Source: Psammoneis japonica
Taxonomy: Eukaryota
Length of the DNA stretch: 20,000 nucleotides
Direction: 5' to 3'
Assembly: GCA_008632985.1 (NCBI GenBank)
Contig: QPGO01000066.1
Span: 120,384 to 140,383 of the forward strand
The notes beneath the pieces were generated by a model, which was not told the DNA's origin, did no database searches, and saw only the letters and a program-made list of their open reading frames with translations. The first letter of the stretch is position 1. Each line of letters begins with the position of its first letter. This document shows positions 1-20,000 of the stretch, one piece after another. The translations under genes and the position numbers were made by a program.

Positions 1-1
1 A

Positions 2-1213: not shown

Positions 1214-1512
1214 CGTGCGACGGCGTACAGTATGCCGATTGCAATGATAGGGCTACAGTAGAGGCCATAGCACATGGCGAAAGCCCTCTGCCAATTAGTA
1301 GAACGCCTCGTATGTAGAATTTCTACTGAGACCTACACGATCGCTTCTTTTTCGATCATCGCTTTGCTTGTGCACACGAAATCTCAACTGATGTTTGCAA
1401 TTTCGACAAGATTCCAGGTGCAAATCGATGCTTCTTTGCATTTTCTAAGGAGCTAACAACACTCAAAACGATCACAAAGAAGCAACAAAACAAAAATAGT
1501 TTACTTGACGAT

Positions 1513-1532
1513 TTGGGGTGTTCGCACCCCAA
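1513..1532. other. Perfect 8-bp hairpin TTGGGGTG-TTCG-CACCCCAA
   Basis: Read directly; lies near the transition from normal to TpA-depleted DNA. Confidence 0.6.
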
Positions 1533-1969
1533 GTAAAACTGTTTTTTCTTTGTCTCAAAAAAATTCCTCTGACGAGACTCTTCCTTGTGCACCCGATTGC
1601 TCAGTGGGAACACGTCGGATGAATGTGCACAGATGTGACATGGAGAGCTGAGAGGAAGAACTAAGGAGCCATCATGGCACATTTCGACTTGCAGGGTTTT
1701 TTTTGGAATGAATCATGCACACGCTTTGTGCTTTGGTGGGGTGGTGTTCACTGTCATGAAATGAAAACTGTGCCGGGCTGTTGACTGAGGCAAGACATGC
1801 AAAATTGATGAAGCACATCCTCAAACACCTGGGATTCTTCTGTGCATGATCCCTCACACATCATAAAATGTGGCGCGGCTGTTTCTCCCACACAATTTTC
1901 ACAACCAAGCAGCTGTCGACAATGGTCTTCACGAGTCAGAACCAGCCGCAACAGAGAAAAGGGTGCAGA

Positions 1970-2169
1970 GACGCGTTCCAGACGTGGGTGGGAATCCGTG
2001 TGACCTTGGGCCCGCAGAATTCCACATGCAAGCTCTGCAGCAAAATTGCAAGGCAATGGAAATGTCAATGATTGCCAACAGAAAATGAGGCAATTTTGCG
2101 AATGCACAAACCAGGCCATGATTGACGAACATCATTTTTTACTTGGCCAGTTGCGTTCTTCAGACATTG
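1970..2169 (+). mobile_element. Truncated copy (one end) of the GACGCGTTCCAG-terminus MITE family
   Basis: Colinear with 15428-15627 (GACGCGTTCCAGACG...TTCTTCAGACATTG). No partner terminus found. Confidence 0.8.
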
Positions 2170-2337
2170 TGGAAAACTGTCAATTGCAGTCTCCCAAGGA
2201 AATGGCACACAGGCAAACAACAACAGCTCTGTCAAAAATCTGTTCACTCATCATCTCTGCCCACTGGAGCTGAGTCTCTGCAAGCCAAGTCATTGTGACA
2301 AAGCAGAAGCATCATCAACTGCCTGCTGCTGCCTGCT

Positions 2338-2421
2338 GCAATCTCTTGCTGACTGGTGAACAGTGAAGAAGGAGGCCTTTTCCCTGCCACCATGAAGCCC
2401 AGCAACAAAAAGATGGCCCAT
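2338..2421 (+). repeat. Dispersed ~80-bp direct repeat, second copy at 3742-3816
   Basis: GCRATCTCTTGCTGAC..GTGAACAG..AAGAAGGAG...AAGCCCA...GGCCCAT in both copies. They differ by TG versus CA at homologous sites (CAGTGAAG/CAGCAAAG, CCATGAAG/CCACAAAG). Confidence 0.8.
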
Positions 2422-2546
2422 GTGTCGTGTGCTGCATTGCACCCCTGCTGAGAGACAGGTCTGATTGGTCAATTGTTGCTGAGTGAACCAACACATGCCA
2501 CTCAATTCTGCAGCATGAGGAGGCTGTGCGGCACAAAAGCACAACA

Positions 2547-2588
2547 CAGCAGCAGCAGCAGCAGCAACAACAACAACAACAACAACAG
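2547..2588 (+). repeat. (CAG)n(CAA)n trinucleotide microsatellite
   Basis: 14 consecutive CAG/CAA units read directly. Confidence 0.95.
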
Positions 2589-3231
2589 AGCAGCTGGCAG
2601 GTGCGCCTGCACTGTGCGTGCACTCTGTGCTGTGGCTCTCCTGCTGGCACTGGGGCTGGCACCATCATGTGCCATCATGTTTTGCACGGGCACATCAAAG
2701 GATCTCACAGCCAAAAGATGATGGAGCCACCAAAGTGAAGGGCCTCCCACATGCCCAAATGGATGGAAAAGTGGAGCTCATGCTTTGGGAGTTGTTCTTT
2801 CATGCCAAAATTCTTGACCCACCAGCAGGTTCCCACTCCCACAAAATTGGTTTCATCTTCTTCCTTGGTTGCTGGCAGTGTGTTGCAAAGATTCACAGCA
2901 GGTGCGGCAGTCACCGGGGAGGCCTTTTCCTCCTGGTCCTGTGCCATGATGTGGAGCCCGTGCCTCAGTGCCAGCAAATTTGACCAAACCCACCTTGTGA
3001 TGAATCAAGATGGCCACTCAGGCACAACCCACCATGCCACCAATGAGTGAGTGTGTGAGGGAGACTCATGAGCTACAAAGGCCATGCCAATGGCTGGCCC
3101 AACACAGGAGGTTGCCAAACTCAGCAACACAAAGAGCAGAGGTCGGCCTGGGCCAGCACGGACCATGCCCAGTGGGAAATCTGGAGGAATTTGTTGTTGC
3201 ACAAGCCCATGGCTCCAAAGCCAAGCCAATT

Positions 3232-3325
3232 GAATTCTGCCCATGAGCTCTGCAGCTCATGCTCTGGACAATGGGAGTGTTTGTCGTTGACACACAAACA
3301 AATGACTGAGTTTGTGGAGCATTTG
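3232..3325 (+). mobile_element. Internal fragment of the same MITE family
   Basis: GAATTCTGC..GAGCTCTGCAGCTC..CTCTGG...TGTTTGTC..GACACA.AAACAAA matches the reverse complement of about 5635-5729. Confidence 0.7.
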
Positions 3326-3407
3326 CACCGCTTGATGCTTGCAATTTTTGAAAATCCCCACCTGCCCCCTTCACAGTTCTCAAGACAATCGAGAATTGAT
3401 CTGAAGA

Positions 3408-3494
3408 AAAGGGGCATTGGGAGATTGCTGGTTGTTGTCGGCCATTTCTGCAGTGGCAGAGTTTGACGGCACCATCAAACAGCTCTGTCGCAAG
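3408..3494 (+). pseudogene. Calpain (CysPc) catalytic-Cys fragment
   Basis: Translates KGALGDCWLLSAISAVAEFDGTIKQLCRK, matching the calpain motif QGxLGDCWLLxAxxxLAE. Similarity is not evident on either side. Confidence 0.8.
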
Positions 3495-4170
3495 TCGCGA
3501 AAGCTAACGAAAATGTGTTTTTCTGACATGAGAGAAGAAATCGAACATGCACACGATTGTGCAACAGCGGCATTCAGCATGTCAGGTTGTTGTGGTTTAG
3601 GAGTGCCTTCCTGCATGTTGGCAAAAACAGCAAAAAGGTTTTCTTGCCATCCTCGAGGGTGCAAGGTGCCATGCGACAGCATGACATGCTTCCTGTGGCA
3701 CAGTTGCACCAGAATGTTCCCTGGCACCTTGCCATGCCGCTGCGATCTCTTGCTGACAAGTGAACAGCAAAGAAGGAGACCTTCCGCCACCACAAAGCCC
3801 AATGAAGGTGGCCCATCTGCTGGATTGCATTCCCAGACGATTTGATTGGTTGCTTGATGCTTCATGCGAAGTCAAAGGAACGACATGGATGACATGCATT
3901 CCAGGCCAAACGAGAAGAGTTGCGACTGCTCTCTTCATGTTGGGTGCGTGCAATTCCTTTGTTCAGGCACCCTCATCACTGGGTTTGCAGTCCACACAAC
4001 TTCTGCAAAACGGCTCCACAAGATCGTGATGCAGGCTTTGCACTTGAAAAAAGGTCATTCACACATTGTGGTGTGATTGCAAACAAAGCGGGACGGGTCA
4101 ACATGTCTCACGTTGTTCGCTCTCACGTGTCTTTCTTTGTCGCTGGATTGGTCGCCCTGTCCTCAGCTCA

Positions 4171-5386
4171 TCAGTCAGCAGAGAACAGCTCCACTTGAAC
4201 ATGTGCTCCCGACGACAAAGACCGCCAAAGATTTTTGCGGGGATCTTCTCCTTGCAGAGGAGACCAATGATCGTTGTGCCCTAAATCATCTGTGTCCGAA
4301 CCCAAGCGCGGGGAGTTGCGCGCAGATGCCACAGCTGGCATTCTTTGGTTTCGACCAGCAAACCAATTGGCCGCAGCCTTCACCGCAACCAGACAAGGAT
4401 CTGGGAGTGATGTGCGTTTGGCAATTCTGGCCTTGACGATCCTCATGCCCCATGTGGCAAGGGAAGTGGGATTCGCTTTATCCACAACAGTTGGGTTCAC
4501 GCGAGGAAGGTCAAATTCGGTGTGACGGTCCACCATTGTGTGGTTGATTCCATCAACTGCAGCAGCGACCAAAGGATCAGGAGTGTTGTTGGCCGACACT
4601 GATTCCATGATGCTGTCATTGAATGTCGATGTCGCGATGGCGCGAGCAAAAGTGGACAGCAGTGCCGTCACCATCACGACGTCTTGATGTGTGCATTCTG
4701 AGTCAGGTCCACGATGATTCTGAAACAATTCTTGGTGTGTGGCCTCCGCGTCTGCGCCACCACGAGAACAGATCACAACACTGCATGAGCAATCCTCGTC
4801 TGGGTCAATTTCATCCCAATTAAGAACGTCGGTCAGGGACATGATCGGAACAATCAGAAGAAAAGGGACATTGTCCATGGCTTCTTTCTGAAATTTGAGT
4901 CTTGGCATGTTGCATTTGTTGTGTTTTAGGCCAGACTGGGAGACACGCTCGATTCTTCCATTGCTCAGCCTGTGCTCCACTCCTTTCACAAGTTTGAGAT
5001 GAATCTCTGGACTCACATTTTTCAGTCCCAGTGCAGCTTTGGAGACAAACCCACACGATTTGGATCCTCCTTTTGCATCGGAGATCACATGTGCTTTTTG
5101 AAAAATTCTGTGGCCAAGCAGATCTGTTGCCACATCACCGGTGCTGTTTGATTTTCCAGAAGAATTCTCACTGCGCCCTGGGGCTTTGGAACTTGCAAGG
5201 TCCAAACGAAGCTTCTCCTCTGAAAACACGGGCTGACACATCTTCGGCACAGACCGGCGGCGGATGGGTCCCAGGGCATCCACCCTGCTGTTGCTGCTGC
5301 ACAAAGTGATCTGTGCTTTCTCGATGTTCCAGAAACTGTCGTAAAAGGAGAAATGGGCACCTTTCTGTCGCTGATCCTCCTCCACA
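4171..5386 (-). pseudogene. Hypermutated gene, possibly an HNH-like endonuclease-domain protein; 5' part interrupted by a MITE
   Basis: Longest ORF in the track (432 aa) with protein-like composition but only one Tyr. The KAHVI...GLKHNKCNMPRL...MDNVPFLLIVPI spacing resembles HNH_2 (AHxI..NxxxL..D). The track start at 5469 lies inside the MITE, so it is not the true start. Family call is tentative. Confidence 0.45.
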
Positions 5387-5775
5387 GACGCGCTCCAGGT
5401 CCAGGTGGGACCTCGTGCTGCTGAACTGTGACATCGACAGTTTTTTGAATCGCGTCGTATGTCGCGCACGTAGATTTCTACGTGATTTTGGCGAAATTTT
5501 GCATCATTTTACAGTGCAAATGTCAGGCGATCCATTCAGCAACTTTTAATGTTTTTTTCTTCTACGCCATTCTCGAGTGTCTTAAGAATGGCGCAGGGCA
5601 GGCGTGTTGTCCAAAACTTCGAGTGCGAACAGAAATGCATGCACTGCAAACTTGGCCGTTTGTTTTGTGTCGAAGACAAACATGTCCATCAACCAGAGTA
5701 CGAGCTGCAGAGCTCGCACGCAGAATTCCACGGGGCAAATGTCACAAAAAGTCCCACCTGGGACTGGAACCCGTC
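5387..5775. mobile_element. 389-bp MITE with imperfect TIRs and 4-bp TSD CACA
   Basis: Left GACGCGCTCCAGGTCCAGGTGGGA, right TCCCACCTGGGACTGGAACCCGTC. CACA at 5383-5386 and 5776-5779. Internal hairpin CACGTAGA-TT-TCTACGTG (5468-5485). Confidence 0.85.
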
Positions 5776-6118
5776 CACAGAGACAGCTGGTTTTGGTTGG
5801 TCAGGGGGGGGGGGGGGGAGGAGAGCAGCCATTTCTTTCGTTGGCCAAGTGACACTGGCTGTTGCGATGCATCGCGCATCCAGCATGCCCCTGAGGCTCC
5901 ATGTTGTCAGAGGACCTGCTGGCATCTGGCTGGGGCATCTGGTGCAGAAGCCACGTGAAGCCACGCGTGACAAGAAAACCAGCATCAAACATGATGACGT
6001 TGGAGGCAGCAGGTGGCCGATCGCCGCCACGAAACCACAAGGCAGCCACAGAAGGAACCACACATTGTCTGAGCAACTGCTGGATGGGACATGGTGGCAA
6101 CCACATCAAAGACATCTC

Positions 6119-6380
6119 GGCCTGCTCCAGCTCCAGGTGATCCGCTTTTCATCATGTGAGTGGCCGATTTTCTGCGCAGTTTGGCACATCAAACTCCTTC
6201 AATTTTGAGTGTTTCGAAAATCGAAAGGCAAGTGTGCACCCGAAAATACGCGCAAAGTGCACACTTGCCCTTCGATTTGGCAAAAAACGGATTTTGAGAA
6301 AGTTCAGTGTGCCAAATGCACAAATTGCCAAATGATGGGAATCGAGCCCGTGCGGGGATCACCTGGAGCTGGAACAGGCC
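6119..6380. mobile_element. 262-bp foldback MITE with related TIR and 4-bp TSD TCTC
   Basis: TIR GGCCTG(C/T)TCCAGCTCCAGGTGATCC (6119-6143 / 6356-6380). TCTC at 6115-6118 and 6381-6384. Inner 22-bp inverted repeat at 6218-6239 / 6257-6278 (21/22 match). Confidence 0.85.
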
Positions 6381-9300
6381 TCTCCTGCCTTTGCTTCTCA
6401 GATCCTTGGGGCAGAAAAAGGGGCAGAAAAAGGGGCGCAAAATGTGCCACCTGTGTGTTGCTCACTTCAATCATCACATTTGCATTGAAAGCCAAAAGGA
6501 GAGAACAACTTGCAGCTCCAGAGAGTGCCCACGTGCACATCACCATGGTTGAAAGTCACTTGGATGTCATTTTGCAATGCACATCATGTTGAGCGCTTGG
6601 CCAGCTTGTGCACCCTTGACATGACAATGCGCGGAAAAGCCAACAATGAGAGCAACGGAAAGTGGCCAAATCCAATCTGTTGCCAGTCAAGAAACATCCA
6701 ATGGGGAGCTCCAATGAAGCCACAATTTGATGACAATGGGGGAGCAGGCAAAAACTTGAGAGCTGCTTGAAATGTGTGCCCAGCTGGCTTGTTGTCTTTC
6801 CAGAAATCAGATGGCAACTTTGACGAAAACATTGGATTTGCAACAACCCACCACTTGAATTCTTTGCAGCAGCAGCTGCACTGGAGAAGAAACACCTGCC
6901 ACACAAAATGACAAGGACATGCTGGTGATGCCAGCAGAAAAGAGAAAGTGAGAGTGCGCAGCTGCAAAGTTGTTGCCCATGTGCACAAATTCTGCCAATG
7001 ATGTGAGGCAGACAAACTTCTTTAACACAACTGCACCATGCATTGTCAAGTGCATTTCATGTGTTTGTGCATGTGTTCAAATGTCATCACATTTCAATCG
7101 TGCGTGTCAATCGCGGGTTCACATGAAGGACAGATTGACCACACAGACTTGATTGGATGTCAAAAATTACAAACGCAATCACTTGACAATGTCGACATCT
7201 TGCACATCAACAGCAATTGCATTTGCTGGACAATCTGTTGTCATGATCACATTCTCTGAAAGACCTTTCATTTGCAGAAGCAGTGCAGAAGCTTTGGGCC
7301 ATTGAGAGCTCATCAAGAGAAACCCAAAATGATTGAGCAAAATCTGATCTCATGATTTTCACTTTTTGCAATTTGCTCTGCTTTCATTTGCATGTGTTCT
7401 GAAGCATGGTGCACAACAAATGTGGGGTGGGGTGGCACCAAAGATGGCTGCAGAGAAATGGCAGAGTTCCAAGTGGAGGAGGATTGTGAGTTGTGAGAGC
7501 AAAGGTGGCACACAAATCCTTGCTCCAAGAGCAGCACAAGTTGTCATTGCTGAGACAATGATCAGAGCAGGAGCCATGGAAAGCAAATGCAGAGCAAACT
7601 TGTTGGCTGGGTGCAGAAAAACTGCTCACAGAAATTTCAAAGCGGTGTCAGCATTGCTCATTTGCCAAAAACTTGTTGCACTCAAATTGTGCTTGCGATG
7701 CATGTTTGTGTGTGCAACCTCTGCTCTTTCAAAACTCTCGTCAAAGGGACAACATGGTTTAGAAGCCCTTGAGAATTCTTCAAAATTGCAATTCCAGAGA
7801 GCCCCGCATGAGAAATGGCTTTGTCAAACAAGTCACCTCAAAAAATGCAACCTCTGACTCCCATCAATCATGCAATGCTGACAATGAATGTGAGAGCCTT
7901 CCCAATCGTGTCCATGCCACACCAAATGACAAGGTGAGCAACTTGTGACAAATGCAAAAAGATGCAAGAGGCATCAGAGCAACAGAGACAATGGAGCTCT
8001 GAAACAATGTGGAAATTTGTGCAAGAACAGCACCAAACAAGTGGGGTCAGACTTCCACACATTGTGGACAAAACAGAGCACCAACTGACATGAGGACAAC
8101 AGATGCACACAACATGAGTGACAGATGCAATGCATTGAGGCTTCACAACAATGCTCCAAGCCATGTGTTGCACCATCATCTTGTGGTGTTGTTTCTTGTG
8201 TGCATTTTTGATTTTTTTCTTGTCTGACGGGATGCTGCATGCTGTGGCAAGACAATGCCAGAGCTGCAGGCTGATTTTTCCATTGCGGTGTGCACGACCT
8301 CTTGCTCAGGATGCCCCAGAGTCTCTCCATGTGCATCTGAGGCCAAGCAGGGGTGTGAAGGCAACTGCCTCTGCACTCGCCATGTCATGCTGGTGCGCCC
8401 TGCTTTCTGAGATGATGTCAACAAAAACAAGTGGTGAGTGACATTTTGTTGAGACAACCACGCCATGAACGACAGCATCATTCATGTGAACCATCAGCCA
8501 AAGTGAATGACAACACACAAAATGTGCTCACAACACACCCAACTGTGATTGTCACTGCATGTGTCTTGTTTGTTTTGGGCTTTTTGGTGCACCCACATCC
8601 CAAAACCAACACACAACATGAGCAGCTGCCGTGTCATTTGACAATCTCTTGTGACAGAGTGCACTCAAAATTTTCTCTTTTAGATGCATGTTCTCATTTC
8701 TTTGTTTTTTGTGAGAGAAAGAACATTGAATTGAAAACAGCTCATTTGCCGCCATCTCAACGTTGTTTGCTTTTGATCAGCAATCCAGAACAAACAACTT
8801 GAATTCAAGCGCGATGCAAATCTGCCTGAAATCCACAGAGAAAGATTCCTTTTTCTTCATGAAGTCAGGAGTTTGGCTGATTTTGTCGAGTGCGAAGGTG
8901 GTCACATTCACAATCTGTCACTCTGCTGTCTTTCCTTTTGCAGGCACTGTGCTGTGCAGCAGCATCAGCTCCGCTGGCACTCCCGGTTGGCATGAGCCCA
9001 CCCACTGGCATGACATGTGCGCTCCACATGATGCACACAGGGAAGCCCAGTTGATTTTTGCCACTCAGGCATGAATGAAACATTGAGGCATGTGCAGACA
9101 AAAATGGAATCTCGTTGACATTTTCCCACTGTTGCAGGCACATGCAGCCTCTCATGCAAAGCCTGTGCATGTAAAATGCCACGCTGTTTTACAGTGATCC
9201 CATTTTTTGGATTCCAACGAGTGTGATTTGCTCAACAAAATGCCATTCCATGCCAACAATGACAAAGACACATGGTTGAGAGGCTCACAGAAAAAGACTT

Positions 9301-11433: not shown

Positions 11434-12378
11434 CTTGGTCTGCGATCAAAAAAGGCAACTGGATGGGAGAATGCGGCTCGCAACCGGCTTGCTGTTTGTT
11501 GCCCGGCAAAATTCAGGGCAAAAGAAGTTCAAGAAATGACTGTTGTGTGCGACATCCATCCCACATTGCTGCAATTAGCGGGGTGCTCAGATGTGCACAA
11601 AACACTGCGCCCACGCATGAATGGAAGAAGTTTTCAGTGATTGCTGGTTCGTGAAAATGCTTGCTGGCCACAAGAACGTGCACACCTTGCTGGCAAGACT
11701 GGCAAACCTGAGGCTTGCAAGGCATCAGATGGCTGGTCCCACCGTTTCACCAAGTTGTGTTTGCTTCCAATCGACAAGAGAAGCACTTCTTTTGCACTGG
11801 GCAACTGGGCAGTCGTCAATGATGATGGCACCTGGGGACTCTTTGACCTGTCGAGTGACCCAAAACAGGAGAAAGACCTCAAAGACATTTTGCCTGCAAC
11901 CTTTTGCTGAATGCAGCAAGGCCATTTCTCAGAGCCAGAAAGCATCCGTGGGGAAGATCATGCGTGGTCAGACCCAGTTCAACTCATTGGCCTTCCCGGT
12001 GTTGAGCAACCGCACCCAGAGATGGAGCATGCATGCCGCTTCAAGGGCAAGAATGCCTTCACTTGGTCGAATTCATTTTTCGAGGAAGTTGGAGCCACCC
12101 AGGAAATGAAAGTCAGAGTCCTTGAGCCAGCAACGTGCGATGTTGAACTTCGCACTGAGATGGCACCGAGGGGAACAAAGATCCAGCTTTGAGGTGGTTG
12201 GGACATGCACACTGCCCTTTTGAATGCAGAAAAGAAGCACCACTGTGTTGGCCGCTTTGCATTCCCTGCAGGAGATCAATCCACATCAACAACAGTTGTC
12301 AACTCCGATGATCGGGAAGATCTGAGAAGAATGTTGGCGTGGAGTTTGTGTCTCACGAAAGTGCACTGGGTGACATAG
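11434..12378 (+). pseudogene. Sulfatase (arylsulfatase-type) C-terminal fragment
   Basis: One frame: LRSKKATGWENAARNR...DIHPTLLQLAG...MNGRSF...WGLFDLSSDPKQEKDL, matching sulfatase motifs KxxxWE, DIxPT, GRS and LFDLxxDPxE. In-frame TGA at 11638, 11908 and 12190. The catalytic N-terminal half is absent and the 3' limit is uncertain. Confidence 0.8.
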
Positions 12379-12489
12379 CGTGTCCTCTTCACAGCCTCAT
12401 TTTCATGGACATCTGTGCTCCTGCCACTGACTTGTGTGTTGTGGCTTTGAGGGCTGCAAAAATGCAATCGATTGACATCTCCAGTTTGG

Positions 12490-12815
12490 TGGAGAAGAAT
12501 CAGTCTGATTTTCTTCCCATTTTTGTTGTCGTCGACGAACTTCTTTTTGACACCATTTTTCCGCATCGGCCACACCCGACTCGTGCATTTCATTCATGAC
12601 TTCTGGTGATGACGACTGGAGGACGAGCTTCAGCAGAGTTGGGACACTGTTTGTTTTGCTGCATGGACTGATTTCATCATTTGTGTCCACGTCGCCTGAC
12701 GGATTCCTCAAACGAATCTTGCTGAGCGGAATCACAGACACATTCACGGTCCGCTTGACTTGCGAGCCATGCATTTGTTGCAGGACTTTCAAGTCGGGAC
12801 AACCAAATCGACAGT
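12490..12815 (-). pseudogene. Gene fragment, possibly the C-terminus of a patatin-like phospholipase
   Basis: RFGCPD...KRTVNVSVIP...DEISP...LLKLVLQSSSPEVMNEMHESGVADAEKW resembles the patatin/PNPLA tail (..YExGxxDAxxW). No GxSxG motif present; tentative. Confidence 0.4.
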
Positions 12816-13465
12816 GACGTGTTGCTGCTGTTGTGGTTGCGTGAGTTTCCTGGTCTGCCGTCATCCATTGGGCTCCTTCCAAAGCAAAAACAACAACAGC
12901 ATCAACAGCACCTGCAGCAGCAAGGGTGGGATTGACAGTGTTGGGCATGCCAGGGGGCCGAAACGCAGGTGCGGCGTTGGAATTCGTGACAGCATCTGTG
13001 GGAGGCGGTGGGGCGAGAATGAAAGAAGTGTGAGTTGTTGGCATTTCATTGTGGATGTCATTGGCAAAAGACAATGACAGCATCAACAGTGCCTGTGGCA
13101 GCAAGGGTGGGAGCAACAGTGTCGGGCATGCCAGGGGCCCAAAACGCAGGTGCGGCGTTGGAATTCGTGACAGCATCTGTGGGAGGTGGTGGAGCATGCA
13201 AACAACAGTGTGAGTTTGCAGCATCTCATTTTGCGTGCATCACACCCACGAGAACCGGAACAATGACATCACCTGTTGCATCAGTGTCATCAGCAATGGT
13301 GTCAGTGGGATCGGCATCCTGGGAAGGCAATGGGGAAGAACCACTGGGCAACATCATGGTCGAGTCGTCAAAACATGTGATGTTTTGGTGTGTGTGCTGT
13401 CTTCCAAAAAGTGCACTTCTGTGCGCACCCTCGGTTTTTGGTGGTTCACAGCTCCCCTGCCACAG

Positions 13466-14885
13466 GGACACACTGCATTTTGTCGCATTTGGCGACATTT
13501 TCTTAAATGAATTGATGATTTGTCGCGAAAAGACGCGAATTGCGACAAAGTGTCCGGGTTGGCGATAAACAGGACAGAAACATTGTTCAACCAAGTCACA
13601 AAATGATTGTTGTCATTTACAACCAACCTGCACTTTGGTGATGTCGTTTCAATGAGTGGGGCAATCAACAGAATTTGGCGATCGATGTCATCGACGAAAA
13701 TTCATCTGACAAAATTTGTCGCATCCGACAAATTTTGTCGGACGTCCGACAAAATTTGTCGGCATGTGACACGACACGACACGACACAACAAAGACACGA
13801 CAAGAAACGACACGACAAGACATGACATGACACGTCACGACACGTCACGACACGTCACGACACGACGACTCACGACTCATGAACGAAACACCCATGCCCC
13901 CCACACACGCCAACCGCTAACGTCTCCGTCAACACCATGTCTCTTTTGCACGATGATGCAAAGTGACGATCGTGCCGCTCTCGGCGGTCTCCAACATTTC
14001 ATCCACAATCTCGTGGAGACGGCACGTCCATGCGACTGGGCACTTCTGAATGTTGGGGAGCGTTGCATTGTCGGCATGTCGCAAATGTCCATCTGTCGGC
14101 ATTTGTCGGCTCTTGTCGGCGTTTTTCGTACATTGTCGGGGTTTGTCGGACATGACAAAATTTGTCGTGTGCAGTCTTCGCCGAAAGTCAAGGATGGATC
14201 TACGTGCTGCGGTCTCATTTAAAACAGCTCGCATTTCCCGCACTTCACCGTGCCATTTTGACCTGCCTCGGAACACCCCCAAACACCACTCATGCGTTTG
14301 TCAAACCCTCATGGGGGCTGTCAGATGGCTTTAAGAGCTGCACATTTGGTGCTTCAAATGCCACTTGTCGACCTGTGCCCTGTTGTCAGGTCAAAAAAAC
14401 TGCCATTTTTTGCTAAAATCAGGCTTCTCATGGGAGATCAGCGGCAACTTTCCGGGAAATGCCAACAAGTGGCATTTGACTGGCTGTGGACATGTCTCCA
14501 GTCGTTGCGGTAAAAGTCGCTCATGGTCACACCTGTTGTTTGAGCATTCTAGGGTGTCTGGCGAATGGACAAAGTTCGACCAATCGCTGAAATTTTTTTT
14601 TTTGCGAACGTGCGCGCATTTGCTGCGATGCATCCGGGTTGTTTTTACAAAAATTGCGAGCTCCCAAAAAACAGAACACAGCACACAGATCCATCCTCAA
14701 ATTCATCATGTGGCACTGCAGTTGACACAACGTTTGTGTTTGGGACATGCCATCGCCAATTGAATGATGACTTTGTCTTAATTTATCGCCAACGATTGAA
14801 ATTTGTCTCAAAGGGCATTTTTCACGACAAATCGTCCAATTCATGCATGGGAATGTTGCAATTGGCGACAAAATGCCGTGTGTCC
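13466..14885. mobile_element. 1420-bp non-autonomous TIR element, PIF/Harbinger-like (3-bp CAG TSD)
   Basis: About 130-bp imperfect TIRs starting GGACACAC(T/G)GCATTTTGTCGC. CAG at 13463-13465 and 14886-14888. Excision restores CTCCCCTGCCACAGGGGTG. Many TGTCG/CGACA motifs. Confidence 0.8.
13725..13880. repeat. Perfect 38-bp palindrome followed by a degenerate (CACGA)n array
   Basis: CCGACAAATTTTGTCGGAC|GTCCGACAAAATTTGTCGG (13725-13762), then GACACGACACGACACG... from about 13768 to 13880. Confidence 0.9.
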
Positions 14886-15427
14886 CAGGGGTGCAATCGG
14901 CGGATTGAAAGATTTCAGCCTTGGACCCAATTAAAAAAATCAACGGACAAGTGAACTGAAAAATGTGGCGGTGCATGCAGTGCACTGTGCGTGTCGGCAC
15001 GACTTGGTCAACGGGTGCGGTGGGCACACCCCTGTGGCAGGGGAGCTGTGTGTGTGTTCGTGGTTGCACGCGCACGGCTTTGCCGTGCGTTGAGTTTCAA
15101 TGTCAACATCCACATGAATGTGTGTGTTCCACAAGCAAAAATTCCCATTCCACAGCTCCCCCAAAACTCCAACCACCAAAAACCGAGGGTGCGGAAGCGC
15201 ACTTTTTGGAAGACTGCACACACACCAAAACATCACGCGTTTTGTCGACTCGACCATGACGACCTCCCGTTCTTCGTCCCCCACACCACCTGACGCATCC
15301 CCGCTGCCACATCTGATGTGGCAGTCCCTCCTGCATTGGCCGGCACCGTTGCACCCGCTGTCGTCACCCAAACACAGCCGATTTGCCATCCAGAGGATTT
15401 GGGCTTCTGTTCGCCGGATCCTGTGCC

Positions 15428-15823
15428 GACGCGTTCCAGACGCAGGTGGGAATCCGTGTGACATTGGGCCCGTAGACTTCTGCGTGCGAGCTCCGTAGTA
15501 AAATTGTGCAGCAATTAAAATGTCAATGATCGCCAACAGAAAATGAGGCAATTTTGCGAATGCACAAACTCGCACATGATTGAAGCACATCATTTTTTGC
15601 TTGGCCAGTTACATTCTTCAGACATTGAAGAATGCAACTGGCGCATCATTGTTTCTATAAATTTGTCATGTAAAACGTCAGGGGCTTCGCAAAACAGCGA
15701 GTCTGGACAATTTTTTTTAAACATCACATGCAGAAATCTACGTGCAAAACATACGACGGATGACAAAAATTGTTGTTGTCACACGTCAGTGCTACGAGCT
15801 CCCACCTGGGGCTGGAACGCATC
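15428..15823. mobile_element. 396-bp MITE (GACGCG terminus) with 4-bp TSD TGCC
   Basis: Left GACGCGTTCCAGACGCAGGTGGGA, right TCCCACCTGGGGCTGGAACGCATC. TGCC at 15424-15427 and 15824-15827. Opposite orientation to 5387-5775; retains several TA sites. Confidence 0.85.
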
Positions 15824-15953
15824 TGCCTGAAACACAAACACAGCGCTGGGATTGGTCTGCCCCTGTCATTGCATCCCCAGAGAAACTGGACTCTTGTTCG
15901 CATCATCGTGTTGTGGAAGGTTCTGATGAGCCGTCTCTCAAATGGTCTGGGGT

Positions 15954-16596
15954 GCAGCTCCGAAACCAGCCGCCACGGAAACGACACAAGATGAAGAGGA
16001 TGAAGAAGAAGAAGAAGAAGATCTTCATGCAGAAGAAGCAGTTGCGGATGATTGTTTGTATGAAGAAGAAGAGGAGGAGGAAGTGGAATTCAATCCCATG
16101 TCCATGTCCATCTGAGGCCGCACTTGCAGGAGTTTTTGCAAAGCATTCATGGCAAGCATGAATTCATTGTCTTTACGGCATCTCAACAAGTTTGTGCCGA
16201 TGAGTTGTTGAATTGAATTGATCCGGGTGAGTGGCAGTGCATGTTGCAGTTGTGTGTTTTTTGAGTTGAAGTGCGCTTCCCACCCACCCATCAGATGGCA
16301 AGTTTGTTCAACACCGCATGTTTCGTGAATCCTGTCTTGCCGTGGAAGGCAATTGCCTCAAGGACTTGAATGTCTTGGGCCGTGACTTGGACAAGACGGT
16401 CTTGGTGGACAACTCGCTGCACGCCTTTGGCTGTCAGGTGGACAATGGCATTCCCATTGAATCGTGGTTTGACGATCCCAACGACGTGGAATTGTCAAAG
16501 CTGGCGGAATTTTTAGAGAAGCTGCCTCACGACAATGTCAAGCCCACGGTGCGAGCCAAGTTTCAAACGTGGAAACTTGCACAAGAGGCACGTTAA
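15954..16596 (+). pseudogene. FCP1/SCP (NIF) CTD phosphatase fragment, CTDSPL2-like, with retained intron and deleted catalytic motif
   Basis: An acidic tract ending EEEVEFNP is joined out of frame at about 16098 to VHVHLRPHLQEFL..KHEFIVFTASQQVCADELLN*IDP. A GT-AG intron at 16227-16294 follows, then DGKFVQHRMFRESC..GNCLKDL..LGRDL..TVLVDNS..AFGCQVDNGIPIESWFDD. DLDETL is absent. Confidence 0.9.
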
Positions 16597-16696
16597 CGAA
16601 AGAAAAACATGGGGAAGAAAAGAAAACAATTGCAGCACTGTTGGCTGTGGACAATGGATCTGTCATGATTTGACTTGCAGTTTGTGCATGCAGTGT

Positions 16697-17140
16697 TCTC
16701 TGGCAGGCTTGTGGCACTGCGTGATGCTTGCAAGGGACTGCAAGGAGGCAAGTTTGTGTGTGTCACAATGTGTTCTTTTTTCTGCTAGGTCGCATGTTGC
16801 AGCAATCCACACACCCAAATTCAAGCAGTCGTTGTCATTTGTGGGCCCTGTCCAATCTCCGGCAGGCATTGTGTGTTGCACTGTGTGTTCTTTCCAGTCG
16901 ACTGCAAGATGGCACAATGTTGTGTGTCTCCATCATTGTGTGTTCTTTGGCCATTTTGCAGCAATCCGCACACACGAGTTCAAGTGTTCTGCTTCATTGT
17001 CGTTGTCATTTGCACCCAATCTCTGGCAGGCATGTTGCACTGTGTGTTGCTTCCAGTCCACTGTGAGGCAGCTGCAAGTTGTGTGTCCATCACATCATGT
17101 GCTCCACTGTTTTTCACTGTGTCGCAGCAATCCGCACACC
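16697..17140 (+). repeat. Degenerate tandem repeat, ~160-bp unit, ~2.7 copies
   Basis: GCAGCAATCCRCACAC at 16799, 16958 and 17124. TCTC(C/T)GGCAGGC...GCACTG(C/T)GTG recurs three times. Confidence 0.8.
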
Positions 17141-17637
17141 TGAACTCAGGTCTGTTTGAAGCACACGGCATGACATGTCACTCTGCCAAGCATGCGGAGC
17201 CTTTTGGAAGACATCAAGAGAGACCCGCAAGATGGATGCGGCGGCAGTGTCATCGGAAAAGGTGCCGTCAATTTGGCTGGAAACGGCAGCATCCATGCAA
17301 ACATCTTGTGCAGCAGCAGTGTGTTGGTTGCCCGAAATTTGAGGCATCCCGCTAGAAGGAAGCATGCCACACATGTCAGCAGAAACGGGAGAAGAAGGCG
17401 GTTCGGCGCATGTGTGGACGGAGGAGCAGCAAGGTGCAGGGGACGAAGAACGGGGGGTCGTCATGGTCAAGTTGTCAAAACGCGTGTTTTTTGTGCGGAG
17501 AAAAAGAGCTCCCAAAAGTGCGCTTCCGAACCCTCGGTTTTTGGTGGCCAGAGTTTCAGGGGAGAACATGGTTCAGGATTTTTCCTGCTGCCACTAGCAT
17601 TTGTGTACAAATGCATAAATAAATGACAGAACATTTA

Positions 17638-18346
17638 TCTCGCGCACGTGTGCGCGGTTATTAGACTGTGTAGGCGTGCGCACGTGTGTGAGGTGTAAGT
17701 AGAATAAACGTAGAATTACTGCTGAGTGAGTTGACATGCGGTGGATTTTCCGCCGGTACACAGTCTACGTGGTCTACATGAAAGATAAATTTATGTTGGT
17801 CTCTTATGGTTTTACATATCATTAACATTGCTCCGGTCTTGAAAAGATACATACCCAAATTCAAAAAAGTGAGGAACACCCCGAAACATATTTTAAAATC
17901 TGAATAAAAAAAATTTCTATTTAACGTCCCGAACAGAGTTGTCGCGAAGCGCTTCTCAAATTATCTTCAGATTGGATATAGCGAAAACTCCACTATTACC
18001 AAAACAGAGTCACTATGGGCAAAATAGATGTCCGTCCTTCGCGCGCAATAACAGCAGCCTCACGATAACGCACAACAACACCATGGCGAGCAACGCGAAC
18101 GCCGTTCACTTATCTACCAGCTTATTGGACAATATTTATGCAATGTATTTCTGGGTCTAGTTGGGATTCTTCTCATTGCTTGTTGCCGTGTCATGTTACA
18201 ACGTTTGACCCACCCCACGCCGTGTTTTTTGCTTTGTTGCCTCTGCTCGCGCGCCACCAACAGCTTTTCCTGCAGGGCATGGCTAGTTGGACGGTCACAT
18301 CGAACCCAAACGTGCGCAACCAACTAGCCCTACCCCGGCTAACTCA
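17638..18346 (+). mobile_element. ~709-bp non-coding insertion with normal TpA content; Helitron2/Helentron-like ends
   Basis: Splits the alpha-type end of Pack element 2; the flanks rejoin to match the reverse complement of 10761-10885. 5' hairpin CGCGCAC-GT-GTGCGCG (17641-17656). Asymmetric 8-bp inverted repeat GCGCACGT (17642-17649) / ACGTGCGC (18310-18317). 3' stem GGCTAGTTGG / CCAACTAGCC (18281-18329). No TIR. The insertion is well supported; the class is tentative. Confidence 0.6.
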
Positions 18347-18466
18347 CACAAAAATATGATGAATGAGACATGAGCTGCCACGCAACCATGACATCACCAC
18401 GTTCTCCCCTGCCACAGGGGTGCGGCGGGCGGCGGCGGGGGGGACTTGGGACACAACAATGCACTG

Positions 18467-18740
18467 TGTAGGATGGAGAGTTCAGGACTCTCTTGAGGTT
18501 GTGCAACACAACAGAGGATGATAAGAAGTGGGTTTGGGACAACAAGATGCGCCAAAGACACGAATTGTGAGAAGATCTCACGAGGGATTGGAGATGACAT
18601 TGTGACCCAACGGTCGTGTGTGTCACTCCGATTGCTGTCGCTAGAAGACTCAACGGACATTTCTTCCGGAAGAAGAGATCCATGACCGGAAGCGTCATCC
18701 GTGAATCAGATTCGGTTGTTGACTCGTGACTCTCCCTCTC
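18467..18740 (-). mobile_element. Polypurine tract and putative 3' LTR of the Copia element
   Basis: The minus strand reads GAGAGGGAG (18740-18732) shortly after the pol stop, then AGTCACG... to ...CATCCTACA (18467). The LTR end cannot be confirmed without the 5' LTR. Confidence 0.55.
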
Positions 18741-18767
18741 AACCGAAAAGAGAAGGAGAACTGTCAG

Positions 18768-20000
18768 TCACCAGCCCATGAGGGCTTTGCGACCAGCACG
18801 GAACAGATCAACAGTCAATCCTTTAGCAAACTGGTCAGCAAGCTGTGCAGCTGAGCTCACAGGCTCAATTTTGATCTCCAAAGCCTCAACTTTAGTGCGA
18901 AACCAATGGCAGGGAATGCCGATGTGCTTGGTTCGTGGGGACAATTTTGGCATGCGGGCGAATTGGAGGCAGGCAGCATTATCTTCGTACACAACGGATG
19001 CTGGGAGGTTAGTGGAGTCAATGGGAGAATCCTCAGTTCCGTCGTTGGTGTGTCGGAAAGCCTTCGAATGTGTCGAAATATCGGTCTGTCTGTCCGGCTG
19101 TCCGAAAACGAGCGCGTTGATTTCCTTCACGATCTCGCGAAGGGGGATGAGATCACGCATCGCTTGGGAGAGGGCGACATGCTCGGCTTCCATGGCAGAG
19201 AGTGCGACGAGGGTCTGTGGCTTGGACACCCAGACAATCGGACATCCTGCACAACAAATGACACATCCCGCACGTGACTCAACAGACGTGGGATCTTGTC
19301 CATCTTCAACACTGAAGAGTCCCGCGAAATCAGCATCAACATGGCAGTCGAGTCGTTGATCGGCGGTTGGAGTTAGGATAAGTCCTTTATCGGCTGCATC
19401 CTTCAGGTGACGAAGAATGCGCTTGACAGCCGCAGCGTGGGAGGCCTTGGGTGCGCAGGAGAACCGTGCGACTTGATGGGTCGCGCAAGCAATGTCTGGG
19501 CGGCTGTTGGATGCTAGATGCATCAGCATGCCGACCACGGAACGGTGGTCACAAGGCTCTTCGAACGGTGGCCCTTCGGCATCGCTGCCAGCAGGAGCAG
19601 GCAAGGCAGGAGTGGGTGCGCCATTGCACTCAGTCATCTGTGCGGTGCGGAGAACTTTCTCAATTAGGCCGGGTTGGGTCAGGAGGAATCGGCCGTCTTC
19701 GAGCTTTTGAATCTTGATGCCTGGAAAGTTACCGACTTCGCCTTCATCACGTAGATCAAAGACATGGCGTTGCTCATCGTCAGAAATGCCCAACTTGGCA
19801 ATCTCTGCTTCCAAGGCTTGGGCCGATGCGCCGGCGAACACGGCATCATCAACATGTGCCACACATGACATGCCCTTTTTGAAATAAAGACAAGGGTCAA
19901 TGGCGGATTGAATCCATCCTCTTTCGAGCAATCCGTCCCTCAGCTTTTCATAGAAGCACTTGGGAGACTGGCGTAGGCCGCACAGGCCTTTCAACAATTT
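18768..20000 (-). mobile_element. pol: Ty1/Copia pol, RT and RNase H region (CoDi-like), hypermutated and probably inactive
   Basis: Motifs GLRQSP, IDPCLY, HVDD (=YVDD), SRPDIA, VDADFAG, EAEHVALS, YEDN, RTKHI, QLADQFAKGL and terminal LMGW*. Continues beyond the window. Confidence 0.97.

Follow-up and report, generated by a model that had tools for sequence, protein, structure and literature searches.

A TpA-depleted, TpG/CpA-enriched domain of repeats and gene relics in a diatom genome and its probable origin by DNA-level hypermutation

Features of the locus and extent of the depletion

The window analysed here is a stretch of 20,000 nucleotides from the diatom Psammoneis japonica, in which an intact gene lies beside a long block that has lost nearly all of its TpA dinucleotides (Table 1). 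The gene is glycosyltransferase-like: its nearest Atlas clusters carry PF05637 (Glyco_transf_34), two homologues share 52% and 44% identity with it, and tyrosine makes up 4.3% of the residues of its product. Together with its upstream region (1-1534) it has a TA observed/expected ratio of 0.51, and three 500-nt windows across it hold 16-21 TA each (0.47-0.60), in agreement with the preliminary description, which had reported the gene as unaffected; this single-copy gene is thus not depleted.

Table 1 Features of the window, with positions counted from its first nucleotide.
Feature	Position	Strand	Remarks
GT34-like glycosyltransferase gene, intact	2..1252	-	417-codon frame open; TA-normal; internal control
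Non-coding upstream region of GT34-like gene	1253..1534	.	TA-normal, 13 TA in 282 nt
TpA-depleted, TG/CA-enriched, partly CpG-depleted domain	1535..17594	.	made up of repeats, gene fragments and stretches at single-copy depth
Calpain-like (Peptidase_C2) remnant, weak lead only	3405..3842	+	Pfam E 3.3e-4 over 33 residues, under curated cut-off
Tyr-stripped 445-codon ORF (P0002), relic of uncharacterised protein family	4174..5508	-	13 homologues, 42-64% identity
Inverted repeat (~515 nt), left arm	10925..11433	.	internal 181-nt subrepeats; 87.6% identity to 12933-13446
Inverted repeat, right arm	12933..13446	.	pairs with 10925-11433
NIF (CTD-phosphatase-like) fragment, exon a	16100..16226	+	Pfam NIF E 4.6e-9, profile positions 35-76 of 160
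NIF fragment, intron	16227..16294	+	68 nt, GT..AG (GTGAGT...CAG), TA-free; frame restored across
NIF fragment, exon b	16295..16596	+	Pfam NIF E 2.9e-24, profile positions 79-154
High-copy island (~760 nt) inside mutated repeat copy	17595..18355	.	TA-normal, 50 TA (0.84); CpG-normal, CG 1.21
Copia (RVT_2/RNase H) polyprotein fragment, partly hypermutated	18768..20000	-	RVT_2 E 1.6e-10

The depleted block (16,060 nt) contains 70 TA against about 1036 expected from its composition (observed/expected 0.068) and 652 expected from the ratio in the flank and island, and 1000 mononucleotide shuffles gave a mean of 1036 (sd 24, minimum 962), none falling below 962. TG and CA are correspondingly frequent (1679 and 1729, both 1.70) and CG is reduced (572; 0.59), so that, relative to flank levels, about 11% of the expected TA is left versus about 63% of the CpG. 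In 500-nt windows the count stays at 0-9 TA (0.00-0.25) for all 32 starting positions from 1501 to 17001 and reaches 34 and 18 (0.78 and 0.64) at 17501 and 18001. Earlier counts of 4 TA in 6301-9120 and 39 in 1-1200 were reproduced exactly. The depletion previously placed at 1700..20000 is real, but it starts near 1535, directly at the end of the upstream region, with the next TAs only at 1662, 1864, 2140 and 3074; nor is it continuous, being interrupted by the TA-normal island and only partial in the last 1.6 kb, where the copia sequence lies (0.22 over 18356-20000). Repeats at 5.3-6.0 and 15.3-16.0 kb likewise retain part of their TA.

Logan contigs of run X1, at a single-copy depth of about 32, show zero differences from the window over 2598-5413, 6321-7255, 7341-10024, 11447-11892 and 12093-12524, although this run represents one sample, possibly the very one from which the assembly was made, so that the agreement is not independent support for the bases. 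The P0002 open reading frame lies in such an exact contig (depth 31.7); its best named relative comes from a diatom MAG. For the window as a whole, the closest named relatives are proteins of diatoms, two of them at 60-64% identity. The NIF fragment has 3 TA in 497 nt, and its profile positions run on from 76 to 79 over the intron. Its first exon carries an in-frame TGA at 16213-16215 (read as X in the Pfam comparison), and in the second a conserved tyrosine is now cysteine, solved chains of human SCP reading GNYVKDL and the window GNCLKDL. The DNA transposons that the earlier statement counts among the targets are putative, since no transposase domain was found in the window.

Direction, strands and level of the change

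Comparison with homologous proteins shows that the change is mutation away from TpA and toward TpG/CpA, as had been proposed, with conserved tyrosine codons turned into cysteine or histidine codons. In P0002, nine conserved tyrosine columns hold one tyrosine, five cysteines, two histidines and one phenylalanine, while 140 of 177 other conserved columns are kept; in copia, compared with 60 homologues, nine such columns hold no tyrosine, six histidines and three cysteines, and 181 of 207 others are kept. Pooled over these two unrelated families, the 18 columns contain 1 Y, 8 C, 8 H and 1 F, and of the other conserved columns 321 of 384 are preserved (Fisher p 4e-12). Under a looser threshold the window proteins retain one of 12 tyrosine columns per family, and the 73 homologues retain 6-12 each. 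The 81 substitutions at conserved columns comprise 31 single TA>TG/CA steps (among them T|ACN>T|GCN, T|ATG>T|GTG, CTA>CCA and GTA>GCA), nine of CpG type and 41 of neither kind, so that ordinary divergence has also been large; polarised changes are hence not confined to the CpG type. Relatives of the affected sequence are not TA-poor themselves, the P0002 family having TA ratios of 0.53 and 0.56 at two metagenome loci.

Single elements carry changes on both strands, as described before, with 10 TA>TG and 8 TA>CA changes in copia and 10 and 3, respectively, in P0002. The balance of TG and CA holds in all 32 windows (chi2 26.1, df 32), and the order of the two outcomes along copia shows runs as expected at random. 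Since the intron-bearing NIF fragment is depleted, the change took place at the DNA level and in situ, which upholds the earlier view. Paralogous copies mutated independently: over 2744 aligned columns, paralogue pairs differ by 42 TG<->CA doubles, 18 TA<->TG/CA differences and 59 out-of-context transitions, and sites that became TG in one copy and CA in another imply mutation after insertion. The inverted-repeat arms differ by 20 CpG-type changes, 9 TG<->CA doubles, 3 other transitions and 16 transversions.

Context specificity, targeting and boundaries

At the dinucleotide level TA is lost and AA is not (AA 1.26, flank 1.19), with AG at 0.85 (flank 1.10). The undepleted AA argues against both an ADAR-like preference and the WA preference of Pol eta, a candidate of the preliminary description that is further disfavoured by AG not being raised. 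Over 23 bins, residual TA tracks residual CpG (rho 0.74, p 5e-5), which suggests that exposure time in chromatin presumed silent from its CpG depletion set the extent of the loss; one stretch, 13341-14007, has near-normal CpG (1.31) yet a TA ratio of 0.09.

The loss had been called repeat-targeted. Repeats are indeed hit, but depletion does not depend on copy number as measured by depth (23 bins; rho 0.22, p 0.31), six bins at single-copy depth match the repeats (0.00-0.06), and the island, with a summed contig depth of 4571-5430, is untouched, so that the term does not hold as it was used. On the right, the block ends within a repeat copy, in which 17439-17594 is without TA and the adjoining homologous 17595-17636 keeps five; the paralogue at 10838-10880 has TG or CA in place of all five. 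This boundary fits neither a simple element-wise nor a simple domain-wise model.

Related systems, proposed explanation and alternatives

The first report of A>G/T>C hypermutation at TpA only, a rare signature, dates from 2026 and concerns the alga Bigelowiella natans (Mettrop et al., bioRxiv 10.64898/2026.01.13.699255). Two integrated viral regions there gained 231 de novo mutations, of which 230 were A>G or T>C; all of these lay at TpA, and the rate was about 6e-7 per site per generation. The preprint also describes 124 TpA-depleted, CpA- and TpG-enriched clusters, names an ADAT2 candidate and refers to activity of the amphioxus and trypanosome ADAT2 enzymes on DNA (bioRxiv 10.64898/2026.01.13.699255); the earlier remark that no mechanism had been described is therefore superseded as regards both the signature and the ADAT-type hypothesis. 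In both organisms the change is exclusively TpA>TpG/CpA, lies in discrete regions beside normal genome and runs GC-ward against the usual direction. The B. natans clusters combine TpA loss with CpA/TpG gain as the window does, and show an excess of RT and DDE domains and of unannotated ORFs; the single-copy NCLDV target matches the copy-number independence seen here, and an ADAT2/3-like candidate class is common to both. The host differs, probably belonging to another supergroup (the preprint text mentions diatoms 0 times), and saturation is far higher in the window, at 0.07 over 16 kb versus 0.45 for the B. natans NCLDV region and a cluster threshold of <=0.43. The targets are integrated viral and foreign DNA in B. 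natans and, in the window, where no viral hallmark gene was found, copia, unclassified repeats and cellular-type gene relics. A further point of difference is the CpG decay that accompanies TA loss in the window, and the window offers a footprint read from sequence, whereas the B. natans mutations were measured de novo.

Among better known systems, ascomycete RIP resembles the window in its dense, context-specific transitions on both strands, which inactivate mobile DNA in situ and spare neighbouring genes. RIP changes C to T mainly at CpA, creates TpA and needs duplicated sequence; the window shows the opposite chemistry and direction, destroying TpA and creating CpA/TpG, and its single-copy-depth stretches are equally hit while a high-copy repeat is spared. 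Decay of 5mC at CpG likewise acts on a palindromic dinucleotide, yields TG/CA, is present in the same domain (CG 0.59; nine polarised changes) and co-varies in extent with the TpA loss, but it cannot remove TpA, and TA loss in the window is far more complete. Deamination of A to I, read as G, by ADAT2/3, TadA, fungal sexual-stage mRNA editing or ADAR would give the outcome seen here; the known natural role of all of these is on RNA, ADAT/TadA-type enzymes prefer a 5'-U/T neighbour, and ADAR also takes a 5' A, whereas AA is untouched in the window. APOBEC3 is comparable as deaminase-driven hypermutation that restricts mobile or foreign nucleic acid (a deaminase being presumed for the window), but it converts C to U on single-stranded cDNA, one strand per cycle, and the window shows A>G on both strands, non-retroelement DNA included.

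We propose, with a probability of roughly 0.7, that a silent domain underwent in-situ, DNA-level TpA->TpG/CpA hypermutation by an ADAT/TadA-like deaminase recruited to silenced, cytosine-methylated chromatin. The agent would deaminate adenine to hypoxanthine in 5'-TA-3' DNA and may be related to the tRNA-A34-deaminases (ADAT2/3, TadA) or be another deaminase-superfamily protein. In its target domain, where repeats lie among gene relics and defunct mobile elements, it would turn the palindromic TpA into TpG or CpA, that is, A:T into G:C on either strand. Conversion has gone almost to saturation and ends no more than about 100 nt from the promoter region of the active gene next to it. Acting over long periods, it would have fully stripped the older residents and only partly the younger insertions. 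The process may be of the same kind as that in the B. natans mutation-accumulation lines, here in a diatom.

Equal damage to both strands would also be expected if a symmetric adenine or thymine modification in silent chromatin, placed on TpA, which is palindromic like CpG, decayed or were mis-repaired to G:C much as 5mC decays at CpG, making the loss a by-product of an epigenetic mark with no dedicated deaminase. Sharp, chromatin-domain-like boundaries and the co-variation of TA and CpG loss, as expected if both marks share chromatin, fit such a mark, but the TA-poor stretch with near-normal CpG does not. The known eukaryotic 6mA systems mark ApT, not TpA; we know of no TpA-specific DNA modification in diatoms, and to our knowledge neither 6mA nor 5hmU decays at a high rate into a G- or C-pairing base, so we regard this reading as unlikely. 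A Y-family polymerase like Pol eta, misinserting G opposite T at motifs during silent-chromatin repair, appears still more doubtful. In somatic hypermutation Pol eta generates A>G changes at WA, but this motif covers the undepleted AA, the roughly 90% loss of TA is hard to attain through occasional repair patches, strand-coordinated tracts are absent from the 32 windows and the random TG/CA runs of copia, and the B. natans de novo data fit events at TA and none at AA.

Editing of RNA from A to I by an ADAR- or ADAT-type enzyme, followed by reverse transcription and re-insertion of the edited copies, is largely refuted and very improbable. One affected element is a copia retrotransposon, and both ADAR and ADAT-type mRNA editing favour a 5' U; yet the copia sense strand carries T>C in 8 of 18 polarised events, impossible from sense-RNA editing, the intron-retaining NIF fragment and non-retroelement sequence are equally stripped, AA is untouched, and the doubles between copies indicate mutation after insertion. 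Just as improbable is a sequencing or assembly artefact (for example, miscalls at modified bases), a foreign-DNA composition or selection against TA. Although read support comes from contigs of one sample, possibly the assembly's own, exact contigs of up to 2.8 kb with even depth give the same bases, and Illumina data revealed the same signature among de novo mutations of B. natans. The depleted state is common to unrelated elements, to pseudogene relics and to an intron, and the embedded repeat and adjacent gene do not share it, while Tyr>Cys/His at invariant positions speaks for degradation, not functional composition.

A point against the proposal is that, in the part of a model-diatom mutation-accumulation study available to us, a GC-to-AT bias is reported without mention of a TpA effect (PMC6604790). 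The domain described here is probably a new and more saturated case of the B. natans-type signature in another lineage.

Extent of the TpA depletion and contents of the window

The base content of the 20-kb window is near-equal, and the depletion of TpA is localised, with boundaries at approximately 1535 and 17594 and normal sequence adjoining them. Within this block TpA occurs 70 times in 16,060 nt (observed/expected 0.068), while 1000 mononucleotide shuffles gave a mean of 1036 (sd 24, minimum 962) and 652 would be expected at the ratio of 0.63 seen in the normal parts of the window. Each of the 32 windows of 500 nt starting at 1501 to 17001 contains 0-9 TA, and the longest gap without TA in the block is 1128 nt. 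On the left, about 320 nt separate the boundary from the first ATG of the GT34-like gene, upstream of which it lies. The preliminary description had reported that TA is nearly erased from the repeat domain and that the neighbouring GT34 gene is spared, and both observations hold: its counts (4 in 6301-9120, 39 in 1-1200) are exact, and TA observed/expected in the gene-bearing flank is 0.51.

The block contains 1679 TG and 1729 CA (observed/expected 1.70 each) as well as 572 CG (0.59). The values for AA (1.26), AT (0.93) and AG (0.85) are unremarkable beside that of TA (0.07), and compared to the flank (AA 1.19, AG 1.10) there is no sign of AA>AG change. With the left flank as baseline, the excess of TG and CA is approximately 1055, against deficits of approximately 460-580 for TA and 330 for CpG, so that the loss of TpA and CpG together accounts for most of the gain.

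Features of the window and TA content (observed/expected) of its compartments
Feature	Position	Strand	TA obs/exp	Remarks
Gene flank	1-1534		0.51	
GT34-like gene, intact	2-1252	-		Open frame; Atlas neighbours with PF05637
Depleted block	1535-17594		0.068	
Calpain match, sub-threshold	3405-3842			Pfam
Relic ORF, uncharacterised P0002 family	4174-5508	-		445 codons; 13 homologues, 42-64% identity
Inverted repeat, arms of ~515 nt	10925-11433, 12933-13446			87.6% identity
NIF phosphatase fragment, two exons	16100-16226, 16295-16596	+		Profile positions 35-76 and 79-154 of 160
Island	17595-18355		0.84	
Stretch with copia	18356-20000		0.22	Intermediate
Copia RVT_2 fragment	18768-20000	-		Pfam

The Pfam scan covered 20 long ORFs and, of the 167 ORFs of at least 70 aa, the 150 between 1359 and 18356, making 170 ORFs in all, and matched only RVT_2, NIF and the sub-threshold calpain; no transposase or viral hallmark domains were found among them. 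For the GT34-like protein, the protein collection contains two homologues (52% and 44% identity) and no near-identical protein; as the reference proteome of Bigelowiella natans is public, this speaks against that reference as the source, and a diatom or other stramenopile is likely. The copia fragment belongs to a protein family that is huge in the protein-representative search; its best named relative is a protein of the diatom Fragilaria crotonensis (60% identity), and one of its top three Atlas clusters is mostly Bacillariophyta, with the phylum known for two members only.

The best named relative of the 445-codon relic comes from another diatom, Bacillariaceae sp. MAG (64% identity). Members of this family (P0006-P0018 and the relic itself) are about 360-480 aa long, and numerous positions are invariant, such as those near HNKYNKLR and WDE. 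No Pfam family matches at E<=0.001, with only scattered weak matches among 14 members; there is no PDB relative at E<=1 and no relatives in IMG/VR, and the AlphaFold model is poor (mean pLDDT 48). In L001, a metagenome contig carrying one relative, the gene adjoins an amino-acid transporter gene, and based on this cellular-type neighbour the family may be a host gene family rather than a mobile-element protein. The family gene in L001 is intact and TA-normal, and the last ~700 nt of the contig (L001:3996-4692) contain 7 TA only (TA observed/expected ~0.15-0.3 in steps of 200 nt), together with little CpG and an elevated TG/CA content. A second organism may thus carry the signature, although the stretch is too short to judge.

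The two NIF exons are split by a 68-nt GTGAGT...CAG intron, across which the frame is restored. The fragment has an in-frame TGA at 16213-16215 and is missing the first 34 profile positions, where the catalytic motif is located; it is a dead copy that arose at the DNA level. A contig of sequencing run X2 (822 nt, depth 36) matches 16297-16604 from the very first bases of the second exon, with 14 differences, and its upstream 510 nt are without a match in the window; the contig may represent either a paralogue or the parent NIF gene's spliced transcript. Just downstream of the fragment, at 16697-17139, a unit of ~160 nt occurs three times in tandem, with divergence between the copies. The arms of the inverted repeat carry subrepeats with a 181-nt period and flank 1.5 kb without a recognisable domain, and the whole structure (10925-13446) is possibly a non-autonomous DNA element with long terminal inverted repeats. 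Several shorter paralogous pieces also lie within the window. Finally, the window has 50 stop-to-stop frames of at least 120 aa, and many overlap one another on the two strands. As TAA and TAG stops disappear along with TpA, gene prediction in such regions will yield spurious long ORFs and Tyr-poor, Cys/His-rich 'proteins'.

Direction and molecular level of the change

The direction of the change was read from conserved Tyr columns. At the nine columns where at least 75% of 13 aligned homologues have Tyr, the 445-codon ORF carries five Cys, two His, one Phe and a single Tyr, while it keeps 140 of the 177 other conserved columns. The copia protein, aligned with 60 homologues (P0019-P0078, the best 60 of 120 listed), has no Tyr at nine conserved Tyr columns (His 6, Cys 3) and keeps 181 of 207 others. 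Taken together, Tyr is kept at 1/18 columns and other residues at 321/384 (Fisher p 4e-12), and 16 of the 18 Tyr columns have become Cys or His. With a threshold of 60% there are 12 Tyr columns per family, of which the window proteins keep one in both cases and each of the 73 homologues (13 plus the best 60 of 120) keeps 6-12. The Tyr content is 4.3% in the GT34-like protein versus 0.45% and 0.73% in the two relics.

Among the 81 substitutions at conserved columns, 31 are explained by a single TA>TG or TA>CA step and nine by a single CpG>TpG/CpA step, and 41 fall in neither class. The 31 polarised TA changes comprise 20 to TG and 11 to CA in the two ORFs, and TA-type steps also cross codon borders, such as T/ACN>T/GCN (slash at the border), found five times in copia. 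In the NIF fragment, GNCLKDL stands where solved human SCP chains read GNYVKDL. In two metagenome relatives of the 445-codon family, TpA is present in the DNA at ordinary levels (observed/expected 0.53 and 0.56), which makes TpA the ancestral and TG/CA the derived state. The mutational reading in the preliminary description, from TpA to TpG/CpA, is thus well supported, with one of 18 Tyr columns kept and 31 TA-type steps.

On the sense strand, the changes are 10 A>G and 8 T>C in the copia ORF and 10 A>G and 3 T>C in the 445-codon ORF. TG and CA outcomes show no runs along copia (9 observed versus ~10 expected), the balance of TG and CA holds in all 32 windows (chi2 26.1, df 32), and no strand-coordinated tracts were found in either the windows or the order of copia outcomes. 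Depletion of TA is no weaker in the NIF intron and the non-coding DNA around it than in the ORFs.

Paralogous copies were compared in 18 alignments within the window (2744 columns), some of which overlap and are therefore not independent. The differences include 79 of the type CpG<->TG/CA, 18 TA<->TG/CA, 42 double TG<->CA, 59 other (out-of-context) transitions and 175 transversions. Double TG<->CA differences are expected when two copies independently resolve one ancestral palindromic step. There are nine of them in the 508 columns of the inverted-repeat arms, implying ~18 ancestral TpA (3.5%, compared to 3.6% in the flank) if half resolve discordantly, and some of them may stem from CpG instead of TpA. 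The five TA of the repeat copy at 17595-17636 are without exception TG or CA in the paralogous stretch at 10838-10880. The results on strands, intron and paralogues fit post-insertion mutation of resident DNA and do not fit RNA editing of retroelements. Change at the DNA level and on both strands, as had been proposed from the sequence, is borne out by the sense-strand T>C changes in copia and by the depletion of the intron-bearing NIF fragment. A near-identical contig at 1426-1947 has six differences, namely three of CpG type, a TG/CA double that takes up two neighbouring positions, and one further transition, with no sign of ongoing TA loss among them.

Copy number and surviving sites

Copy number was approximated by the summed depth of contigs from one sample (run X1) matched to the window at >=80% likeness, with a single-copy depth of ~32 and no cover in the bin 1-667; copies diverged below 80% identity fall outside this measure, so that past duplication is possible. 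Over 1335-2668, 5337-8004, 9339-16008 and 17343-20000 the summed depths lie between hundreds and tens of thousands, which makes a large part of the block repetitive; by contrast, 2669-5336 and 8005-9338 are at depth 32-51. In 23 bins inside the block, residual TA observed/expected does not correlate with summed depth (rho 0.22, p 0.31) but does with residual CpG observed/expected (rho 0.74, p 5e-5). Six bins at depth 31.7-51.1 have TA values of 0.00-0.06, and the two deepest bins (61,646 and 79,685) have 0.24 and 0.28. The island (761 nt) has a depth of 4571-5430, yet its TA and CpG (1.21) are both normal. The claim that the process targets repeats is therefore not upheld for copies of at least 80% identity, as bins at single-copy depth are equally depleted, depth does not correlate with loss, and a high-copy island is spared. 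The affected sequence comprises copia, high-copy repeats and two decayed genes of cellular type, namely the NIF fragment and the P0002-family gene.

The right boundary of the block lies inside a repeat copy, with 0 TA in 17439-17594 and 5 in 17595-17636. The island interrupts this copy, whose paralogue at 10761-11034 is contiguous, and the sequence is already unmutated ~42 nt short of the apparent site of insertion, still within the homologous part. The island may be either a young insertion or a protected stretch. In our reading, any sequence resident in a silenced, cytosine-methylated domain would be exposed to the process, and the extent of TpA loss would reflect residence time, with the island and copia as putative younger arrivals.

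The surviving TpA sites are biased in context. TTA or TAA accounts for 49/70 in the block versus 46/105 in the normal parts (p 7e-4), and ATA or TAT for 12/70 versus 56/105 (p 1e-6), with no ATAT among the survivors in the block. This bias may represent an extended preference of the agent or new TA born by later mutation.

Mechanism, known counterparts and implications

We consider in-situ deamination of DNA adenine at 5'-TA, on both strands and in silent chromatin, to be the most probable explanation (probability about 0.7); the agent would be a DNA adenine deaminase, a class that we infer together with the targeting cue. A symmetric base modification at TpA that is itself mutagenic is improbable. 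The preliminary description had also named Pol eta, whose WA mutagenesis yields A>G at TA and AA; with TA depleted but AA untouched (AA 1.26 versus 1.19 in the flank, AG 0.85 versus 1.10), this candidate is disfavoured and has only a small chance of being correct. RNA editing followed by retrotransposition, of ADAR type, would produce sense-strand A>G after 5' U or A in retro-copies only. Although a retroelement is among the affected sequences, T>C on the sense strand makes up 8/18 copia events, the intron-retaining NIF fragment is affected, AA is not depleted and outcomes are independent in paralogues, which leaves this explanation very unlikely. Equally unlikely is an artefact, foreign composition or selection, given the exact contigs, the embedded normal island and gene, and the loss of Tyr at invariant sites.

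Deamination of DNA at 5'-TA would be of the same kind as a process reported in the chlorarachniophyte Bigelowiella natans in a preprint dated 2026-04-14 (Mettrop et al., bioRxiv 10.64898/2026.01.13.699255), so the mechanism can no longer be called undescribed. Of the 302 nuclear point mutations recorded in 15 mutation-accumulation lines, 231 lay in integrated NCLDV (186 kb) and virophage (25 kb) regions; A>G or T>C accounted for 230 of these, each of them at TpA, at a rate of ~6e-7 per site per generation, ~1000-fold above background and in a subset of lines only (bioRxiv 10.64898/2026.01.13.699255). The genome also contains 124 clusters of 1-kb windows depleted in TpA and enriched in CpA+TpG, and 324 low-TpA CDS enriched for DDE and RT domains, and an ADAT2/ADAT3-like DNA adenine deaminase was proposed as a defence against foreign DNA; diatoms are not mentioned (bioRxiv 10.64898/2026.01.13.699255). 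The window shares with B. natans A>G/T>C change at TpA giving TpG or CpA, the restriction to TpA among the steps that contain A, and the occurrence in discrete regions beside normal genome. The targets in B. natans are integrated viral or other foreign or mobile DNA; those in the window include both mobile DNA (copia, high-copy repeats) and cellular-type relics, and the 170 ORFs scanned gave no viral hallmark domain.

Fungal RIP changes C to T at CpA or another CpN, which raises TpA and lowers CpA/TpG, and it depends on duplication; the window is opposite in composition (TpA 0.07, CpA/TpG 1.70), and its loss does not follow depth for copies of at least 80% identity. Fungal RIP and 5mC decay drive repeats toward A:T. 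The erasure of TpA drives the opposite way and had no described counterpart until the 2026 preprint. Literature searches on TpA with diatoms and transposable elements found no paper, those on diatom hypermutation and transposable elements had none relevant by title or abstract among the matches listed, and those on TpA/TpG hypermutation, giant viruses and Bigelowiella gave only the B. natans preprint as relevant. For Phaeodactylum, mutation accumulation revealed a GC>AT bias with CG, CC and TG as mutagenic contexts, and the accessible part of that report mentions no TpA effect (PMC6604790).

The window is thus a new, unusually saturated case of a kind of hypermutation described once, and it probably lies in a different major lineage from B. 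natans. Tentatively, TpA-directed DNA adenine deamination might be an old, chromatin-coupled layer of defence, widespread across at least SAR, that complements cytosine methylation, is independent of repetition and of viral origin, and affects residents of silent chromatin throughout their stay. If so, no example outside Rhizaria would precede the window and none would be more saturated, and the sparing of TTA/TAA with erasure of ATA/TAT would be the first read-out of the enzyme's extended preference. The data point to a natural DNA adenine deaminase activity with a strict 5'-T context, which is relevant to base editing.

Diatoms are major ocean primary producers with methylated genomes rich in transposable elements. 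If the signature is present in them, TpA hypermutation would be no peculiarity of one chlorarachniophyte, could proceed near to completion, and would have no tie to viral DNA or copy number. It would also mislead annotation, via Tyr replaced by Cys or His, lost TAA/TAG stops and spurious six-frame ORFs, and would affect both the dating of transposable elements by substitution counts and models of GC content.
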